Of a stretch of 64,000 nt of DNA, positions 4,448-16,487 are shown piece after piece. Made by a program: the position numbers and the translations under genes. Position 1 is the stretch's first letter. Every line of letters starts with the position of its first letter. The DNA lies in the NCBI RefSeq assembly GCF_055900595.2, contig NZ_CM148325.1; one strand, written 5' to 3'. A model generated the notes under the pieces. It searched no databases, was not told the DNA's origin, and worked only from the letters and a program-made list of their open reading frames with translations.

Positions 4448-4507
4448 TGAAAAACGTTTTATGTGAAACCGCCTCCGGGCGGTTTTGTCGTTTATGGAGC
4501 GTTAGGA

Positions 4508-7500
4508 ATGGGTAAAGGCAGCAGTAAGGGGCATACTCCGCGCGAAGCGAAGGACAACCTGAAGTCCACGCAGTTGCTGAGTGTGATCGATGCCATCAGC
4601 GAAGGGCCGGTTGAAGGTCCGGTAGATGGATTAAAAAGCGTGCTGCTGAACAGTACGCCAGTGCTGGACATTGAGGGGAATACCAACATCTCCGGCGTCA
4701 CGGTGGTGTTCCGGGCCGGTGAGCAGGAGCAAACACCGCCGGAGGGATTTGAATCCTCCGGCTCCGAGACGGTGCTGGGTACGGAAGTGAAATACGACAC
4801 GCCGATCACCCGGACCATCACGTCGGCAAACATTGACCGACTGCGTTTTACCTTCGGCGTGCAGGCACTGGTGGAAACCACCTCAAAGGGGGACAGGAAT
4901 CCGTCGGAAGTCCGCCTGCTGGTTCAGATACAACGTAACGGTGGCTGGGTGACGGAAAAAGACATCACCATTAAAGGCAAAACCACCTCACAGTATCTGG
5001 CCTCGGTGGTGGTGGGTAACCTGCCGCCGCGCCCGTTCAATATCCGGATGCGCAGGATGACGCCGGACAGCACCACAGACCAACTGCAGAACAAAACGCT
5101 CTGGTCGTCATACACCGAAATCATCGATGTGAAACAGTGCTACCCGAACACGGCACTGGTTGGCGTGCAGGTGGACTCGGAGCAGTTCGGCAGCCAGCAG
5201 GTGAGCCGTAATTATCATCTTCGCGGGCGCATTCTGCAGGTGCCGTCGAACTATAACCCGCAGACGCGGCAATACAGCGGTATCTGGGACGGAACGTTAA
5301 AACCGGCATACAGCAACAACATGGCCTGGTGTCTGTGGGATATGCTGACCCACCCGCGCTACGGCATGGGGAAACGTCTTGGTGCGGCAGATGTGGATAA
5401 ATGGGCGCTGTATGTCATCGGCCAGAATTGCGACCAGTCGGTGCCGGACGGCTTTGGCGGTACGGAGCCGCGCATCACCTGTAACGCTTACCTGACCACA
5501 CAACGTAAGGCGTGGGATGTGCTCAGTGATTTCTGCTCGGCGATGCGCTGTATGCCGGTATGGAGCGGGCAGACGCTGACGTTCGTGCAGGACCGACCGT
5601 CGGATAAGGTGTGGACCTATAACCGCAGTAATGTGGTGATGCCGGATGATGGCGCGCCGTTCCGCTACAGCTTCAGCGCCCTGAAAGACCGCCATAATGC
5701 CGTTGAGGTGAACTGGATTGACCCGGATAACGGCTGGGAGACGGCAACAGAGCTTGTGGAGGACTCGCAGGCCATTGCCCGTTACGGTCGTAACGTCACG
5801 AAGATGGATGCCTTTGGCTGTACCAGCCGGGGGCAGGCACACCGCGCCGGGCTGTGGCTGATTAAAACGGAGCTGCTGGAAACGCAGACGGTGGACTTCA
5901 GCGTGGGTGCCGAAGGGCTTCGCCATGTGCCGGGCGATGTTATTGAAATCTGCGATGATGACTATGCCGGTATCAGCATCGGTGGTCGCGTGCTGGCGGT
6001 GAACAGCCAGACCCGGACGCTGACGCTCGACCGTGAAATCACGCTGCCATCCTCCGGCACCACGCTGATAAGCCTGGTTGACGGTGAGGGTAATCCGGTC
6101 AGCGTGGAGGTCCAGTCCGTCACCGACGGCGTGAAGGTGAAAGTGAGCCGTGTTCCTGACGGCGTTGCTGAATACAGCGTGTGGGGGCTGAAGTTGCCGA
6201 CGTTGCGCCAGCGCCTGTTCCGCTGCGTGAGTATCCGTGAGAACGACGACGGCACGTATGCCATCACTGCCGTGCAGCATGTACCGGAGAAAGAGGCCAT
6301 CGTGGATAACGGGGCGCACTTTGACGGTGACCAGAGCGGCACGGTGAATGGTGTCACGCCGCCAGCAGTGCAGCACCTGACCGCAGAAGTCACTGCAGAC
6401 AGCGGGGAATATCAGGTGCTGGCGCGATGGGACACACCGAAGGTGGTGAAGGGCGTGAGCTTCCTGCTTCGCCTGACCGTGGCAGCGGATGACGGCAGTG
6501 AGCGGCTGGTCAGCACGGCCCGGACGACGGAAACCACTTACCGCTTCACACAACTGGCTCTGGGGAACTACAGGCTGACAGTCCGGGCAGTAAATGCGTG
6601 GGGGCAGCAGGGCGATCCGGCGTCGGTATCGTTCCGGATTGCCGCACCGGCAGCGCCGTCGCGGATTGAGCTGACGCCGGGCTATTTTCAGATAACCGCC
6701 ACGCCGCATCTTGCGGTTTATGATCCGACGGTACAGTTTGAGGTCTGGTTCTCGGAAAAACGGATTGCTGATATCAGGCAGGTTGAAACCAGCGCGCGTT
6801 ATCTTGGTACGGCGCTGTACTGGATAGCCGCCAGTATCAATATCAAACCGGGTCGTGATTATTACTTTTATATCCGCAGTGTGAACACCGTCGGCAAATC
6901 GGCATTCGTGGAGGCTGTTGGTCGGGCGAGCGATGATGCGGAAGGTTACCTGGATTTTTTCAAAGGCCAGATAACCGAATCCCATCTCGGCAAGGAGCTG
7001 CTGGAAAAAGTCGAGCTGACGGAGGATAACGCCAGCAGACTGGAGGAGTTTTCGAAAGAGTGGAAGGACGCCAGTGATAAGTGGAATGCCATGTGGGGCG
7101 TCAAAATTGAGCAGACCAAAGACGGCAAACATTATGTCGCGGGTATTGGCCTCAGTATGGAGGATACAGAGGAAGGCAAACTGAGTCAGTTTCTGGTTGC
7201 CGCCAATCGTATCGCGTTTATTGACCCGGCAAACGGGAATGAAACGCCGATGTTTGTGGCGCAGGGCAACCAGATATTCATGAACGACGTGTTCCTGAAA
7301 CGCCTGACGGCCCCCACCATTACCAGCGGCGGTAATCCTCCGGCATTTTCCCTGACACCGGATGGGCGGCTGACGGCGAAAAATGCCGATATCAGCGGTA
7401 ACGTGAATGCGAACTCCGGGACGCTCAACAACGTCACGATTAACGAGAACTGTCGGGTTCTGGGAAAACTGTCCGCGAACCAGATTGAAGGCGATCTCGT

Positions 7501-7903
7501 TAAAACAGTGGGCAAAGCTTTCCCCCGGGACTCCCGTGCACCGGAGCGGTGGCCATCAGGGACCATTACCGTCAGGGTTTATGACGATCAGCCGTTTGAC
7601 CGGCAGATTGTTATTCCGGCGGTGGCATTCAGCGGCGCTAAACATGAGAGAGAGCATACTGATATTTACTCCTCATGCCGTCTGATAGTGCGGAAAAACG
7701 GTGCTGAAATTTATAACCGTACCGCGCTGGATAATACGCTGATTTACAGTGGCGTTATTGATATGCCTGCCGGTCACGGTCACATGACGCTGGAGTTTTC
7801 GGTGTCAGCATGGCTGGTAAATGACTGGTATCCCACAGCAAGTATCAGCGATTTGCTGGTTGTGGTGATGAAGAAAGCCACCGCAGGCATCAGTATCAGC
7901 TGA
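4508..7903 (+). CDS. J: phage tail tip host-specificity protein J
   Basis: 1131 aa starting [24 protein letters not shown], collinear with lambda gpJ throughout; the ORF track start at 4463 is an upstream extension. Confidence 0.95.
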
Positions 7904-7921
7904 ATTTTATAACCCATATAC

Positions 7922-7946
7922 GGGCGCCAGAAATGGCGCCTTTTTT
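7922..7946 (+). terminator. rho-independent terminator after J
   Basis: GGCGCC-agaaat-GGCGCC stem followed by TTTTTT. Confidence 0.7.
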
Positions 7947-7970
7947 ATTGCAGAAAAGCGAGAGGTAATT

Positions 7971-8570
7971 ATGCGTAAAGTTTGTGCAGCCATTTTGTCC
8001 GCAGCCATCTGTCTGTCCGTATCCGGTGCGCCTGCATGGGCATCTGAACATCAGTCCACGCTGAGCGCGGGGTATCTTCATGCCTCGACGAACGTTCCCG
8101 GCAGCGATGATCTTAACGGGATTAACATGAAATACCGTTATGAGTTTACGGACACACTGGGGCTGGTGACGTCATTCAGCTATGCAGGAGACAAGAATCG
8201 CCAGCTTACCCGTTACAGCAATACCCGCTGGCATGAAGATTCCGTGCGTAACCGCTGGTTCAGCGTGATGGTGGGGCCGTCTGTGCGCGTGAATGAATGG
8301 TTCAGCGCGTATGCGATGGCGGGTATGGCTTACAGCCGTGTGTCGACTTTTTCCGGGGATTATCTCCGCGTAACTGACAATAAGGGGAAAACGCACGATG
8401 TGCTGACCGGAAGTGATGACGGTCGCCACAGCAACACGTCTCTGGCGTGGGGAGCTGGCGTGCAGTTTAACCCGACCGAATCCGTGGCCATTGATATTGC
8501 TTATGAAGGCTCCGGCAGTGGTGACTGGCGCACTGACGGTTTCATCGTGGGTGTCGGTTATAAATTCTGA
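7971..8570 (+). CDS. lom: outer membrane protein Lom (Ail/Lom family, prophage-encoded)
   Basis: 199 aa with signal peptide [24 protein letters not shown] and beta-barrel pattern ending ...GVGYKF, as in lambda Lom. Confidence 0.9.
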
Positions 8571-8597
8571 TTAGCCAGGTAACACAGTGTTATGACA

Positions 8598-8622
8598 GCC
8601 CGCCGGTTCAGGCGGGCTTTTT
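8598..8622 (+). terminator. rho-independent terminator after lom
   Basis: GCCCGCC-ggttca-GGCGGGC stem followed by TTTTT. Confidence 0.75.
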
Positions 8623-9330
8623 GTGCACAGAAAACCCCCAGCTAGGCTGGGGGTTCCGGAAAGCTTTCAGCTTTGAGCCAGTTATTAAAACCCCTTTTGA
8701 TTTGTTAAAACACCTTGCGGTCTGGCAACTGCAAGTGTCAAACAAGAAATCAAAAGGGGGTCCCAATGGGGGACGAAAAGAGCTTAGCGCACACCCGCTG
8801 GAACTGTAAATATCACATAGTTTTTGCGCCGAAATACCGAAGACTGGCGTTTTACGGAGAGAAGCGTAGGGCGATAGGCAGTATTTTGAGAAAGCTGTGT
8901 GAGTGGAAAAGCGTACGGATTCTGGAAGCAGAGTGCTGCGCAGATCATATCCATATGCTTGTGGAAATCCCACCCAAAATGAGCGTATCCGGCTTTATGG
9001 GATATCTGAAAGGGAAAAGCAGTCTGATGCTTTACGAGCAGTTTGGGGATTTGAAATTCAAATACAGAAACAGGGAGTTCTGGTGCCGAGGGTACTATGT
9101 CGATACGGTGGGTAAGAACACGGCGAAGATACAGGACTACATAAAGCACCAGCTTGAAGAGGATAAAATGGGGGAGCAGTTATCGATTCCATATCCGGGC
9201 AGCCCGTTTACGGGCCGTAAGTAACGAAGTTGAATGCAAATGTCAGATCGTATGCGCCTGTTAGGGCGCGGCTGGTAACAGAGCCTTACAGGCGCATTTG
9301 AAAAACCTCCGGCTATGCCGGAGGATATTT
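8623..9330 (+). mobile_element. IS200 insertion sequence (IS200/IS605 family); ends approximate
   Basis: Contains a tnpA matching IS200 Y1 transposase; left-end hairpin CCCCCAGC-tagg-CTGGGGG upstream of tnpA; ~0.7 kb, the expected IS200 size. Confidence 0.8.
8766..9224 (+). CDS. tnpA: IS200 transposase TnpA (HUH/Y1)
   Basis: 152 aa MGDEKSLAHTRWNCKYHIVFAPKYRR...HIHMLVEIPPK, the HUH motif and IS200 TnpA signature. Confidence 0.95.
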   Translation: MGDEKSLAHTRWNCKYHIVFAPKYRRLAFYGEKRRAIGSILRKLCEWKSVRILEAECCADHIHMLVEIPPKMSVSGFMGYLKGKSSLMLYEQFGDLKFKYRNREFWCRGYYVDTVGKNTAKIQDYIKHQLEEDKMGEQLSIPYPGSPFTGRK

Positions 9331-9345
9331 ATTTGTGGAGTGGAT

Positions 9346-11751
9346 ATGGCAGCAGTAAAAATCTCAGGTGTGCTGAAAGATGGTGCGGGAAAACCAATAC
9401 AGAACTGCACTATTCAACTGAAGGCAAAGCGTAACAGCACCACGGTACTGGTGAACACGGTGGCTTCTGAAAATCCGGATGAAGCCGGACGTTACAGCAT
9501 GGATGTTGAGTATGGCCAGTACAGCGTCACCCTGCTGGTTGAAGGTTTTCCGCCTTCACATGCCGGGACCATTACCGTCTATGAAGGCTCCAGACCAGGT
9601 ACGCTGAATGATTTTCTCGGTGCCATGACGGAAGATGATGTCATGCCGGAGGCATTGCGTCGTTTTGAGGCAATGGTGGAAGAAGTGGCACGCAACGCCG
9701 AAGCCGCCTCTCAGAGCGCAGCGGCGGCAAAGAAATCCGAAACTGCAGCGGCATCATCAAAGAACGCGGCGAAAACCTCAGAAACGAATGCAGCTAATAG
9801 TGCACAGGCGGCAGCGACCTCAAAGACTGCATCGGCAAACTCCGCGACAGCAGCCAAAAAATCAGAAACCAACGCGAAAAATAGCGAGACAGCCGCAAAG
9901 ACGAGCGAAACCAACGCAAAGTCCAGCCAGACGGCAGCGAAAACCAGCGAAACGAATGCCAAAGCCAGTGAAACTGCGGCAAAAAACAGCCAGGTTGCAG
10001 CAGCCCAAAGCGAGAGCGCGGCAGCCGGTTCTGCGACTTCAGCAGCTGGATCAGCAACTGCTGCGGCTAACAGCCAGAAAGCTGCGAAGACGAGTGAAAC
10101 TAACGCAAAGTCCAGCCAGACGGCAGCGAAGACCAGCGAAACGAATGCCAAAACCAGCGAAACTGCGGCGAAAAACAGTCAGGATGCAGCAGCCCAAAGC
10201 GAGAGTGCTGCAGCTGGTTCTGCAAGCGCGGCGGCTGCTTCTGCCACTGCATCAGCTAACAGTCAAAAAGCAGCAAAAACCAGTGAAACCAACGCAAAGG
10301 CGAGCGAGACTGCGGCGGCGAACTCGGCGCAAGCATCGGCAGCAAGCCAGACAGCAGCTAAAGCAAGTGAAGACGCAGCCAGAGAGTATGCAAGCCAGGC
10401 AGCGGAGCCGTATAAACAAGTTTTGCAGCCGTTGCCCGATGTGTGGATACCGTTTAATGATTCACTGGATATGATTACGGGCTTTTCGCCATCATATAAA
10501 AAAATTGTTATTGGCGACGATGAAATAACAATGCCTGGCGACAAGATTGTAAAGTTTAAACGCGCATCGAAAGCAACTTACATTAATAAATCTGGTGTGC
10601 TGACAGAGGCTGCCATTGACGAGCCACGATTTGAACGTGATGGCCTGCTTATTGAGGGGCAAAGAACTAACCTGCTAATCAATTCAACAAATCCGACTAA
10701 ATGGAACAAGTCGTCAAATATGATCTTAAGTGCATCAGGTGTAGATGATTTCGGATTCCAGTACGCAAAATTTACATTAAAACCAGAAATGGTAGGGCAA
10801 ATTTCAGCGATTAACATAGTAACCGTTTCCGGCAGTAAAGGTTTTGATGTAACAGGCGGAGAAAAGTATGTAACCATATCATGCAGGGTGCAAAGTGGCA
10901 CTCCAAATTTAAGATGCCGATTACGATTTGAAAACTATGATGGTTCTACCTACACATTCTTAGGTGACGCTTACTTAAATACGACAGATTTATCTATTGA
11001 TAAGACGGGTGGTGCCGCTAATCGCATTACTGCAAGGGCTGTTAAAGATGAAGCAAGCAAATGGATCTTTTTTGAGGCGACAATTAAGGCACTTGATACA
11101 GAAAATATGATAGGTGGAATGGTTCAGTATGCCCCGGCAAAAGGAGTGGGCACTGGCGCGGATGATTATATTTATATTGCGACCCCTCAAGTTGAAGGTG
11201 GGGCGTGCGCTTCATCGTTTATTATAACAGGCGCATCCCCTGTAACACGCGCCAGCGATATTGTGACGGTCCCCATTTCTCTAAATTGGTGCAATCCCGC
11301 TATTAGTTCATTAGCAGAAGTTAATACCAATTGGGATGAATCGCCAAACAAAGAAGGTAGCGCACGTATTCTTAATATTTCCACTACGGGAGATACAACT
11401 GAAATTGCAGATGAAAGTTATATGTATTTGGGGTATACATCTTTGGGAGCACGCGCAATCATTACAAATGGTAAAGGCACTAAAATAGAATATAAAAGCG
11501 TTATAGAACGACCAGAGAGAAAAAGCATTATCGGCTTTAGATTCACAGAAAGTCGAGAATTGTGTGTTGTGGTTAACGGTAATATTGGTGCTAAGGTAGT
11601 TTCTCCTTATAAAAAACACAAATATACAGGAGGCTTCATTAATATTGGTGGTCAATCATCATCCGGCAACCGTCACCTATTTGGACACGTTCGAAATCTG
11701 CGTATTTGGCACAAGGCATTGACTGATGCTCAGATGGGGGAGTCAATCTAA
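9346..11751 (+). CDS. stf: side tail fiber protein (lambda Stf-like N-terminus, Ala/Ser/Thr-rich repeat shaft, divergent AT-rich C-terminal domain)
   Basis: N-terminus MAAVKISGVLKDGAGKPIQNCTIQLKA... matches lambda Stf; shaft has repeated KTSETNAK units; C-terminus ends GHVRNLRIWHKALTDAQM, resembling a LamG/concanavalin-like fold. Confidence 0.85.
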   Translation: MAAVKISGVLKDGAGKPIQNCTIQLKAKRNSTTVLVNTVASENPDEAGRYSMDVEYGQYSVTLLVEGFPPSHAGTITVYEGSRPGTLNDFLGAMTEDDVMPEALRRFEAMVEEVARNAEAASQSAAAAKKSETAAASSKNAAKTSETNAANSAQAAATSKTASANSATAAKKSETNAKNSETAAKTSETNAKSSQTAAKTSETNAKASETAAKNSQVAAAQSESAAAGSATSAAGSATAAANSQKAAKTSETNAKSSQTAAKTSETNAKTSETAAKNSQDAAAQSESAAAGSASAAAASATASANSQKAAKTSETNAKASETAAANSAQASAASQTAAKASEDAAREYASQAAEPYKQVLQPLPDVWIPFNDSLDMITGFSPSYKKIVIGDDEITMPGDKIVKFKRASKATYINKSGVLTEAAIDEPRFERDGLLIEGQRTNLLINSTNPTKWNKSSNMILSASGVDDFGFQYAKFTLKPEMVGQISAINIVTVSGSKGFDVTGGEKYVTISCRVQSGTPNLRCRLRFENYDGSTYTFLGDAYLNTTDLSIDKTGGAANRITARAVKDEASKWIFFEATIKALDTENMIGGMVQYAPAKGVGTGADDYIYIATPQVEGGACASSFIITGASPVTRASDIVTVPISLNWCNPAISSLAEVNTNWDESPNKEGSARILNISTTGDTTEIADESYMYLGYTSLGARAIITNGKGTKIEYKSVIERPERKSIIGFRFTESRELCVVVNGNIGAKVVSPYKKHKYTGGFINIGGQSSSGNRHLFGHVRNLRIWHKALTDAQMGESI
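9860..10330 (+). repeat. tandem imperfect coding repeats (~186-bp units) in the tail fiber shaft
   Basis: Protein repeats SQKAAKTSETNAKSSQTAAKTSETNAK(A/T)SETAAKNSQ...AAAQSESAAAGSA occur at least twice, nearly identical. Confidence 0.7.
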
Positions 11752-12041: not shown

Positions 12042-12746
12042 ATGGCTACATCAACAGTAATTCCGGGAGACATCACCACGCTGAAGGGAGATGTTAGTAA
12101 AGCAAAGGAAGATATTTCCTCTATTAACGGAAAAGTATCAACGCTTCAGACTGATATGGCCAGTGCAAAGCAGGATATCAGCACCAGATACACAAAAACT
12201 GAAGTTGATAATAAGCTGAAAAACAAAGTGGAAGTGAACGATCTGGAAAGTGGTCGTTATGGCGGAGATTTTTACCCGCTGACTGGCCGTGAAGCGTTTT
12301 ATTTATGGGGATTGGGCACAACTACAGCGGCGGCAAATCTTTATCTTAATCCTGACCCTGCAATTTCGTCTGTGCTGCGGTCAACATCGTCTATCCGCTA
12401 TAAACATTCAGTAGAGACGATAGATTCAGAGCACGCCGATCTCATTTTCAGGATGCGCCCTGTGTGGTACAGGTCGCAATGCGAAAATGACAGGCGTGAC
12501 TGGGGATTCTATGGATTGATTGCCGAGGAAGTTGGAGAAATTGCCCCTCAGTTTGTTCACTGGCGACCAGCCAACGAAGATGATGCACCGGAAACCATTT
12601 CCAGCAATGGCCTTGTTGCCGAAGGTGTAATGTACGAACGTCTGGTTGTTCCACTGATTCACCATATCCAGAAGCTGACTGAAAGAGTTGATGAACTTGA
12701 GTCAGAATTAAAGTTGTTATCCGTTTCCCGAAGCGATATCGGATAA
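12042..12746 (+). CDS. coiled-coil protein with C-terminal intramolecular-chaperone (peptidase S74-like) domain; tail-fiber-related
   Basis: N-terminal heptad-like coiled coil; C-terminal SSIRYKHSVETID...LIFRMRPVWYR...GFYGLIAEEV resembles the self-cleaving chaperone domain of endosialidase-type fibers. Confidence 0.6.
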   Translation: MATSTVIPGDITTLKGDVSKAKEDISSINGKVSTLQTDMASAKQDISTRYTKTEVDNKLKNKVEVNDLESGRYGGDFYPLTGREAFYLWGLGTTTAAANLYLNPDPAISSVLRSTSSIRYKHSVETIDSEHADLIFRMRPVWYRSQCENDRRDWGFYGLIAEEVGEIAPQFVHWRPANEDDAPETISSNGLVAEGVMYERLVVPLIHHIQKLTERVDELESELKLLSVSRSDIG

Positions 12747-13277: not shown

Positions 13278-13868
13278 TTATATGTCAGGTGTCTGAAGTT
13301 TTGCTTTGGCTCTTAAAATGGTTTGCCGCGAGGTTTTGAATTCCCGGGCAATGGCACTTATACTTACACCTGACTTAATCCGTTCGAATACCACCTGTTT
13401 CTGTTCTTCATTTAACACAGGTGGTCGACCAAAACGTTTCCCTGCGCCCCGGGCTCTTACTATCCCGGAATGAGTGCGTTCAAGTAAAAGGTCTCGTTCA
13501 AATTCAGCGACTGCTGAAATTACTTGCATCATCATTTTTCCTGTTGGACTGGTCAGGTCAATGCCCCCCAATGCTAAGCAATGCACTCTGATACCTGTTT
13601 CGGTCAGTTGTTCCACTGTTTTCCTGATATCCATTGCATTACAACCAAGGCGATCCAGTTTTGTCACAATCAATTGATCACCACATTTCAGGCGAGCAAG
13701 CAACCGGTTAAAACCAGGACGCTCACTGGTTGCTGCTGAGCCGCTAATGTGTTCTTCGATTATTTGCTGAGGTTTGATTTTAAAACCTGCACTTTCGATT
13801 TCCCGGCGTTGATTTTCGGTGGTCTGATCCAGCGTTGATATCCGACAGTAAGCAAAAATTCGAGACAT
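13278..13868 (-). CDS. pin: serine recombinase / DNA invertase (PinQ/PinR-like)
   Basis: 196 aa [29 protein letters not shown]... resolvase/invertase fold with catalytic Ser and C-terminal HTH; position next to tfa and ydfK matches K-12 pinQ. Confidence 0.9.
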
Positions 13869-15203: not shown

Positions 15204-16487
15204 ATGGATTTCCAGTTATATTCGCTCGGCGCAGCGTTAGTGTTTCATGAAATATTTTTTCCTGAATCATCAACGGCAATGGCGTTAATTCTGGCAATGG
15301 GAACCTACGGTGCAGGTTATGTGGCGCGTATTGTCGGAGCATTTATTTTCGGCAAAATGGGCGACAGAATCGGGCGTAAAAAAGTGCTCTTTATTACCAT
15401 CACTATGATGGGGATCTGTACCACCTTAATTGGTGTGCTGCCGACCTATGCACAAATTGGTGTGTTTGCGCCAATTTTGCTGGTGACGCTGCGTATTATT
15501 CAGGGGCTGGGGGCAGGCGCGGAAATTTCCGGTGCCGGTACGATGCTGGCGGAATATGCGCCAAAAGGTAAGCGCGGAATTATCTCCTCATTTGTTGCTA
15601 TGGGGACTAACTGCGGAACCTTGAGCGCAACGGCAATCTGGGCCTTTATGTTCTTCATTCTCAGTAAAGAGGAACTGTTGGCGTGGGGATGGCGTATACC
15701 GTTCCTGGCGAGCGTTGTCGTGATGGTCTTTGCTATCTGGTTGCGTATGAATCTGAAAGAAAGCCCGGTCTTTGAGAAGGTTAACGACAGCAACCAACCG
15801 ACAGCAAAACCTGCACCTGCTGGTAGCATGTTCCAGAGCAAATCCTTCTGGCTGGCAACAGGGCTGCGTTTTGGTCAGGCTGGTAACTCAGGTTTAATTC
15901 AGACTTTCCTTGCAGGCTATTTAGTGCAGACGTTATTGTTTAACAAAGCAATTCCAACAGATGCATTGATGATCAGTTCGATTCTCGGCTTTATGACCAT
16001 TCCGTTCCTTGGTTGGTTATCCGATAAAATTGGTCGCCGGATCCCGTATATTATTATGAATACCTCTGCGATTGTGCTGGCGTGGCCAATGCTTTCTATC
16101 ATCGTAGATAAAAGCTATGCCCCGAGCACCATTATGGTTGCACTGATTGTGATTCATAACTGTGCGGTGCTGGGATTATTTGCTCTGGAAAACATTACCA
16201 TGGCAGAAATGTTCGGCTGTAAAAACCGCTTTACCCGGATGGCCATTTCTAAAGAAATTGGTGGTCTTATCGCTTCCGGTTTTGGTCCTATCCTGGCGGG
16301 TATTTTCTGCACCATGACGGAATCCTGGTATCCGATCGCCATTATGATCATGGCATATTCAGTGATTGGTTTAATCTCTGCGCTGAAAATGCCAGAAGTG
16401 AAAGACCGTGATTTAAGTGCACTGGAAGATGCCGCGGAAGATCAACCGCGTGTTGTAACAGCTGCGCAACCTTCAAGAAGTCTGTAA
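15204..16487 (+). CDS. ydfJ: MFS metabolite:H+ symporter YdfJ, N-terminally truncated at the prophage junction
   Basis: 427-aa ORF matching K-12 YdfJ (MDFQLYSLGAALVFHEIFF...); begins within TM2 of an MHS-family transporter, so the 5' part is missing. Confidence 0.85.
   Translation: MDFQLYSLGAALVFHEIFFPESSTAMALILAMGTYGAGYVARIVGAFIFGKMGDRIGRKKVLFITITMMGICTTLIGVLPTYAQIGVFAPILLVTLRIIQGLGAGAEISGAGTMLAEYAPKGKRGIISSFVAMGTNCGTLSATAIWAFMFFILSKEELLAWGWRIPFLASVVVMVFAIWLRMNLKESPVFEKVNDSNQPTAKPAPAGSMFQSKSFWLATGLRFGQAGNSGLIQTFLAGYLVQTLLFNKAIPTDALMISSILGFMTIPFLGWLSDKIGRRIPYIIMNTSAIVLAWPMLSIIVDKSYAPSTIMVALIVIHNCAVLGLFALENITMAEMFGCKNRFTRMAISKEIGGLIASGFGPILAGIFCTMTESWYPIAIMIMAYSVIGLISALKMPEVKDRDLSALEDAAEDQPRVVTAAQPSRSL

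Follow-up and report, generated by a model that had tools for sequence, protein, structure and literature searches.

Target-site duplications are normally absent in insertion sequences of the IS200/IS605 family. The single-strand mechanism of two members, IS608 and ISDra2, has been described, and this strand-specific 'peel and paste' proceeds through a circular single-stranded DNA intermediate (PMC5027513). The left-end hairpin of IS200 is a published bidirectional terminator (PMC4513863, PMC5435999). In the same element a stem in the 5'UTR of tnpA sequesters the tnpA Shine-Dalgarno (SD) sequence, the Y125F mutant of TnpA is catalytically dead, and the RNA STnc490/art200 is antisense to the tnpA 5'UTR, opposite to the strand of the Rfam model (PMC4513863). 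The copy described here resembles Salmonella IS200, E. coli IS200C and Yersinia IS1541 in its length of about 0.7 kb, in its 152-amino-acid tnpA product with the HUH motif and Y125, in its perfect left-end hairpin, SD-sequestering 5'UTR stem and right-end hairpin, and in having neither inverted repeats nor a target duplication.

This copy lies in a stretch of 64,000 nucleotides (the window) of contig NZ_CM148325.1, assembly GCF_055900595.2, which contains exactly one IS200 and no further copy elsewhere in its 64 kb. The window has a lambda-like gene order: tape-measure fragments, M, L, K, I, J, lom, IS200 and an stf-like gene, with a single ORF (8766-9224, + strand) between lom and stf. We are highly confident that the locus is occupied by an intact 711-bp insertion sequence of the IS200 group, distinct from the IS200C lineage, which sits behind the lom terminator and is most likely nearly neutral. 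Its features are given below.

4463-7903: J, lambda-like tail region.
7971-8570, + strand: lom, Ail/Lom outer-membrane protein gene upstream of the insertion (Pfam Ail_Lom, E 9.3e-120).
8597-8622, + strand: intrinsic terminator of lom, with an 8-bp GC-rich stem (8597-8618) and a T5 tract (8618-8622) (terminator scan, folds).
8623-9333, + strand: IS200-group insertion sequence, 711 bp, lineage 'A', GTGCACAG...GATATTTATT (comparison of occupied and empty sites).
8633-8655, + strand: perfect left-end hairpin, AACCCCCAGC-TAG-GCTGGGGGTT (folds, Rfam alignment).
8685-8774, - strand: feature described in PMC4513863, placed by homology only, mapped from the tnpA start at 8766.
8691-8759, + strand: stem-loop of the tnpA 5'UTR, predicted to sequester the tnpA SD sequence AAGGGGGT (8754-8761) (single-stranded DNA fold, z = -6.05; Rfam STnc490 structure).
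8766-9224, + strand: tnpA, intact, Y1 HUH transposase of 152 amino acids (ORF list, Pfam, NCBIfam).
9252-9297, + strand: inverted repeat, long but imperfect, in the non-coding part of the right end, ATGCGCCTGT...ACAGGCGCAT (single-stranded DNA fold, z = -4.81).
9306-9333, + strand: right-end hairpin CCTCCGGC-TAT-GCCGGAGG (9306-9324) with the T-rich tail ATATTTATT (terminator scan, fold).
9334-9348, + strand: displaced T of the original T6 (9334), stf ribosome-binding site (RBS) GGAG (9337-9340) and ATG (9346).
9346-11751, + strand: stf-like side tail fibre gene, intact ORF of 801 amino acids (Pfam phage_tail_N, E 5.5e-67; ORF list).

The tnpA product matches Pfam Y1_Tnp with an E-value of 7.9e-37 (126.5 bits; cut-off 23) and the NCBIfam equivalog transpos_IS200 with 144 bits (cut-off 55), and its closest solved structures are all TnpA proteins of IS200/IS605, namely 2EC2 (2.4e-23), ISHp608 2A6M (3e-19) and ISDra2 2XM3 (5e-16). 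The catalytic residues, as read from the translation, are kept (HUH motif H61-I-H63 and Tyr125). Within the 711 bp tnpA is the only family-matched ORF, and there is no tnpB. Rfam family STnc490 (RF01405), the left-end RNA family of IS200, is matched over its full length (1-124) at 8633-8756 with 146.4 bits, against a gathering score of 56. This match is on the + strand, sense to tnpA, and includes the left-end hairpin; the strand of the Rfam model does not settle which RNA would actually be made at 8633-8756. Secondary Rfam matches (Ysr202, ST7-AS1_2, BASRCI337 and a second STnc490 at 9304-9420) fell far under their gathering scores and were dismissed.

The hairpins at the left and right ends fold with z-scores of -4.4 and -4.8, respectively, and the former is presumed to be the hairpin bound by TnpA. 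The right-end hairpin is kept in Yersinia and Edwardsiella, and a Vibrio variant shows a compensatory change in the stem; together with its tail it looks like a terminator and would re-form the element's own target. The ends of the element, GTGCACAGAAA... and ...GGATATTTATT, are non-complementary, so that terminal inverted repeats are lacking. The following characters of the IS200 group of the IS200/IS605 family are recognized: a Y1 TnpA, subterminal hairpins at both ends, no duplication, tnpA as the only gene, and left-end RNA elements, the IS200-specific ones being predicted at 8633-8756. The original prediction, an IS200 complete with its tnpA gene and left-end hairpin, is borne out by Pfam, NCBIfam, Rfam and the 711-bp empty-site comparison, and both ends are defined. 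This copy is probably still mobile, and recent activity is suggested because copies that match it at 711 of 711 positions stand at two different loci on the chromosomes of other strains.

Empty lom-stf sites exist in many E. coli genomes and phages. Two that are 99.3% identical, in E. coli SMS-3-5 and phage PhiR46_1, have the junction GGGC-TTTTTT-GTGGAGTGGATATGG. The occupied junction of CFT073, PRO_A-1407 and W46 reads TTTTTT-(GTGCACAG...GATATTTATT)-GTGGAG, whereas that of the window reads TTTTT-(same 711 bp)-T-GTGGAG, i.e. T5/IS/T instead of T6/IS. The inserted length is exactly 711 bp, with a register ambiguity of 1-2 nt because TT precedes both junctions. Of the span 8623-9330 initially assigned to the element, the start is correct and the end falls 3 bp short of 9333. 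A target-site duplication had also been expected, and none exists on comparison of the empty with the occupied lom-stf site, using IS200-free relatives. A TTGTG repeat at lom-stf was rejected as a duplication, being a coincidence of the flank and the IS ends that is missing at ren-ninB; at ren-ninB occupied sites were compared, with the lambda sequence taken as the empty one. Target duplication is an unsuitable criterion for validating IS200 copies.

The lom terminator lies immediately 5' of IS200, its U-tract is kept in the window, and it is unchanged, with T6, in the two empty sites. Its downstream context is barely altered because the IS starts with GTG, as does the displaced flank. From the 3' end of IS200 it is 4 nt to the stf RBS and 13 nt to the stf ATG. 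The element thus occupies the position first proposed for it, just past the lom terminator (T5 to 8622) and just ahead of the stf RBS (GGAG, 9337-9340) and ATG.

The one-T register is the sole part of the junction private to the window: it was found in none of the 5,426 complete E. coli genomes, where full-length matches to the right junction are all 69/70 with one gap. We consider it rather unlikely that T5/IS/T represents a homopolymer assembly error and not a separate insertion or a local re-insertion. Both differences do fall within runs of T, the PRO_A-1407 copy has an identical IS body, and the window also has a tape-measure frameshift at an A run. However, two errors would have to compensate each other for the sum to remain at six Ts, only five single-base gaps separate 24 kb of the chromosome from a relative with 1.1% mismatches, and a gain or loss of one T at right ends is also seen in tandem Y. 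pestis junctions and between PhiR63_2 and ev058. The same figure of five single-base gaps in 24 kb led us to reject systematic assembly error as a general explanation.

All twelve IS200 copies compared are 711 bp long, and they form two lineages (A and C) that are 28-31 substitutions (about 4%) apart and whose TnpA proteins have four amino-acid differences. The window copy is identical (711/711) to those of PRO_A-1407 (lom-stf), N3 (behind ybiJ) and Nord1 (behind fdnI). The lom-stf copy of CFT073 belongs to the other lineage (IS200C), with 28 differences from the window copy, and its nearest relative, with two differences, is the copy behind the ren-ninB terminator in phage Lambda_ev058. The lom-stf copy of W46 is a mosaic of lineage A in the 5' part and lineage C in the 3' part (positions 551-667), showing that recombination between IS200 lineages occurs.

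These copies bear on the number of insertions. It is somewhat doubtful that there was a single ancestral insertion, spread with the prophage tail module, in which the lineage differences arose by gene conversion between IS copies. The junction T6/IS/GTGGAG is exactly common to CFT073, PRO_A-1407 and W46, and the W46 mosaic shows inter-lineage recombination of the kind required. Against this, the A and C copies differ at 28 positions across the whole element while the lom-stf flanks differ by only 3-10 per 250 nt, the window copy is placed one nucleotide to the left, and the target rule described below predicts repeated hits, the fdnI and ren-ninB terminators also being occupied in several records. 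From these sequence comparisons we conclude that the lom-stf spacer has been hit at least twice.

When a single genome of each species was scanned for the left-end hairpin of 23 nt, 116 independent left-end flanks with 16 variants of the left-end sequence were obtained, from hosts that include Y. pestis (IS1541), Vibrio, Brenneria, Edwardsiella and several metagenome-assembled genomes (MAGs). A perfect-stem hairpin (at least 5 bp, at least 3 of them G-C) with a T-rich tail ending at the IS boundary is present in 89 of the 116 flanks (77%), compared with 1.2% of random positions, 8.1% of T-rich positions and 8.8% (481/5,471) of T-rich positions outside long ORFs (Fisher 1e-66). With mismatches tolerated, the last 40 nt fold at -10 kcal/mol or lower in 111 flanks (96%) versus 11.7% of T-rich positions (176/1,500; p 4e-85). 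At the 116 sites T occupies position -5 in 111, -4 in 97, -2 in 114 and -1 in 103, position -3 being variable, and the resulting logo resembles the element's own terminus, TTATT. The left end is oriented towards the T-tract in every one of the 116 sites, which is indirectly consistent with single-strand transposition.

The E. coli sites that obey this rule are ybiJ, fdnI, the gpT/tape-measure junction, ren-ninB and one site in strain 83972. In a prophage of E. coli CD45, IS200C is located within the late operon, between the gene for tail assembly protein T and the tape-measure gene, after a hairpin and T-tract. Two deposited phage genomes carry IS200 directly after the ren-ninB hairpin and T-tract, a hairpin whose position we take to be that of tR2 on the lambda map. 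Head-to-tail tandem copies of IS1541 in Y. pestis NCTC5923 have the right end joined exactly to the left end, ...GGATATTTATT(T)/GTGCCCAG..., give or take one T, and thus the right end acts as a target. The sequence of the tandem junction is also that expected for a circular transposition junction, and its one-T variation parallels the junction in the window.

At three loci the left-end hairpin is present, but about 700 nt further on no canonical right end follows, so that the element there may be truncated, may consist of a left end alone or may be a longer relative. The identical 23-nt hairpin was also found, often at contig ends, in MAGs assigned to Bacillota, Saccharibacteria, Elusimicrobiaceae, Desulfovibrionaceae (Mailhella) and Oxalobacter, reflecting either very wide horizontal spread or binning artefacts.

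We tentatively propose that the IS200 group may be terminator-homing: on single-stranded DNA the transposase would select a stable hairpin with a TTNTT-like T-tract that mimics its own right end (hairpin plus ...TTATT). Such homing would explain why, across many bacterial lineages, about 96% of copies abut intrinsic terminators, why phage terminators (lom, ren-ninB, gpT/H) are hit repeatedly, and why tandem copies exist. The association with terminators could partly reflect selection against insertions elsewhere rather than the specificity of the transposase. Among new IS1541 insertions in natural Y. pestis, five of six are intergenic and the sixth lies at residue 88 of 91 (PMC3281092, Table 3), which argues that the bias arises at insertion and not solely by later selection. 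We infer that the target preference is mechanistic and not selective in origin.

The terminator-adjacent rule is the more interesting by-product of this analysis and is partly anticipated in the literature, a preprint having reported at the family level that terminator-like sequences are the most over-represented ones upstream of IS200/IS605 elements (10.1101/2025.07.22.666184). No statement of the rule at the level of the junction was found in the open full-text literature, older subscription-journal papers on IS200 and IS1541 aside. The order of hairpin, T-tract and left end is useful for annotating both IS200 ends and terminators and, if mechanistic, helps to account for a nearly dormant transposon being maintained at high copy number while doing little harm. 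If homing is true, lytic growth would be the one phase in which the protective left-end terminator is overridden in copies that sit behind terminators within N- or Q-antiterminated operons. Single-stranded and replicating phage DNA is then abundant, and this would offer an opportunity for expression of the IS and its spread with the phage.

The effect of the insertion on stf depends on how the late operon is transcribed. Lambdoid late operons are transcribed by a Q-modified, terminator-resistant polymerase; for this prophage, whose Q gene would lie outside the window, the lambda-like order of the genes is the ground for assuming Q antitermination. Even without the IS, the spacer has the lom terminator, no further from or nearer to the RBS, and thus stf always depended on read-through. 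Both points make it quite unlikely that the insertion is polar, in the sense that stf is cut off from late-operon transcription by the IS and the fibre is silenced or strongly reduced through the left terminator, the right hairpin with its T tail, and occlusion of the RBS. The left-end hairpin does stop about 85% of ordinary impinging transcripts (PMC5435999), and in the terminator scan both strands of the right-end hairpin score as terminator-like. Nevertheless, two phage genomes tolerate an identically oriented IS200 in the N-antiterminated pR operon, where it follows the ren-ninB terminator. A 10-bp helix (four G-U pairs) is predicted between the IS tail AUAUUUAUUU and GGAGUGGAUAU, which includes the stf SD and AUG, and in the predicted RNA ensemble the unpaired probability of the SD/AUG is 0.01-0.23 with the IS, compared with 0.2-0.8 in the empty site; however, the isolated helix is worth just -3.2 kcal/mol.

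The stf ORF and RBS are intact in the window, stf is annotated as intact in PRO_A-1407, and the 5' part of stf in W46, of which the first 355 nt were examined, carries no pseudogene flag. None of the 233 phage records having a lom-stf junction holds IS200 there, which could speak for a polar effect but is not significant when only about 1% of junctions are occupied; in the phage collection three records have any IS200. A simple scan for sigma-70 promoters at 7800-9500 gave none, and it also misses the known lom and tnpA promoters. Silencing of stf by IS200 is unlikely, the fold predictions suggest that some reduction of its expression may occur, and we infer that the insertion is nearly neutral for stf.

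The insertion can be accounted for by the following steps. IS200 would have transposed by the single-strand 'peel and paste' of its family, without target duplication, its left end being attached to the 3' side of a short target. This target is the T-tract after a GC-rich hairpin (an intrinsic terminator), as at almost all sites examined, and a preference of this kind would have brought the element into the 64 bp between lom and stf of a lambdoid prophage, right after the terminator of lom. The insertion disrupts neither this terminator nor the RBS or ORF of stf, and the right end, with its hairpin and T-rich tail, gives stf a near-original upstream context. Little or no consequence for the prophage is most likely, because late transcription would be Q-antiterminated and already reading through the lom terminator. 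For the window itself the import is small: a known element at a known type of site, probably harmless to the prophage.

Several other features of the prophage and its host were observed. The reading frame of the tape-measure gene is broken: frame 1 runs off the window start and ends at 1203, frame 3 is open at 1110-2117, and the switch occurs near the A-run GAAGAAAAAACAA at about 1170-1185. This is a probable frameshift; tail assembly of the prophage may already be defective, possibly making the question of stf moot. The tape-measure allele of the window is 24-29% identical, as protein, to that of PRO_A-1407. In stf, the region 9700-10500 encodes a long run of near-repeats rich in Ala, Ser, Thr and Lys (...AAKTSETNAKSSQTAAKTSETNAK...), and long spurious ORFs occur there in other frames and on the opposite strand. 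An S74 'chaperone of endosialidase' protein (12042-12746) has 234 amino acids versus 346 in PRO_A-1407 (9453-10493 of its locus), so that the allele is shorter or has suffered an internal deletion. Immediately beyond the fibre genes, in an arrangement like that of Pin/Gin/Cin systems, there is a serine recombinase/DNA invertase gene (Pfam Resolvase and HTH_7; 13281-13868, - strand), and a search for inverted repeats that would bound an invertible fibre segment gave nothing convincing. The prophage adjoins a truncated ydfJ (15204-16487), the position of Qin in K-12. The host chromosome (14000-38000) is 98.9% identical to one bovine strain (EC42405) and about 96.5% identical to most complete E. 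coli; judged by these identities, the host is a divergent Escherichia lineage and not K-12.

The core of IS200 (8660-9290) matches 2,604 of 5,426 complete E. coli genomes (about 48%), 2,063 of them near full length, with a median of two copies per genome and a maximum of 35. K-12 W3110 and DH5alpha match the flanks only and are thus without IS200. Among the 5,426 genomes, the lom-IS200-stf arrangement was recognized in 151 with a 1,508-nt query, of which the IS makes up less than half, and in 139 with the 70-nt right junction. Carriers include CFT073 and the ST131 strains EC958 and JJ1886, where RefSeq annotation is already in place. The element and its lom-stf insertion are therefore already known and annotated (about 150 complete genomes), and an earlier report of the insertion was not found in the full-text literature. 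IS200 had been proposed as a rare strain marker: the lack of IS200 in K-12 is confirmed, but an element present in about 48% of E. coli, with the same insertion in some 140-151 genomes, is not rare. The lom-stf spacer is a recurrent target and hence of little value for marking a strain; with two IS lineages and two junction registers, the arrangement is homoplastic and unsuitable on its own as a lineage marker.

Compared with its nearest relatives, the window copy is about 96% identical to RefSeq-named IS200C copies and 91% identical to a Salmonella houtenae copy, and its 23-nt left-end hairpin is identical to that of IS1541. It differs from IS200C in belonging to a sub-lineage 28-31 substitutions (4%) away, and is thus not nearly identical to the RefSeq/PGAP-annotated copies of that element; PGAP labels the copies identical to it merely as 'IS200/IS605 family' transposase. 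The inserted length is 711 bp here and 707 bp for Salmonella IS200 (PMC4513863), a difference that we attribute to differing definitions of the ends, because the Salmonella copy aligns without net indels.

With IS608 of H. pylori and ISDra2 of D. radiodurans the element shares a homologous Y1 transposase, subterminal hairpins, insertion 3' of a short target beside the left end, and the lack of a duplication. However, IS608 and ISDra2 also carry tnpB and have the defined targets TTAC and TTGAT, whereas IS200 has a T-rich, TTNTT-like target that is preceded by a hairpin and is similar to TTATT, the terminus of its own right end. An A-run is located 5' of the foot of both hairpins (cagAAAAcccc and ttgAAAAAcctcc); this is suggestive only, as a hint of guide-sequence pairing.

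Bacterial group IIC introns home to terminator stem-loops. Among insertion sequences, ISPpu9 targets REP sequences (PMC8450116). Like the group IIC introns and the ISPpu9-like elements, IS200 occupies a structured, intergenic and mostly harmless site and is shielded from outside transcription. The enzymes are unrelated, a retro-homing ribozyme with reverse transcriptase in the introns and DEDD or DDE transposases in the REP-targeting elements. Thus, the likeness of IS200 to elements that home to terminators or palindromes is one of strategy, not of ancestry.
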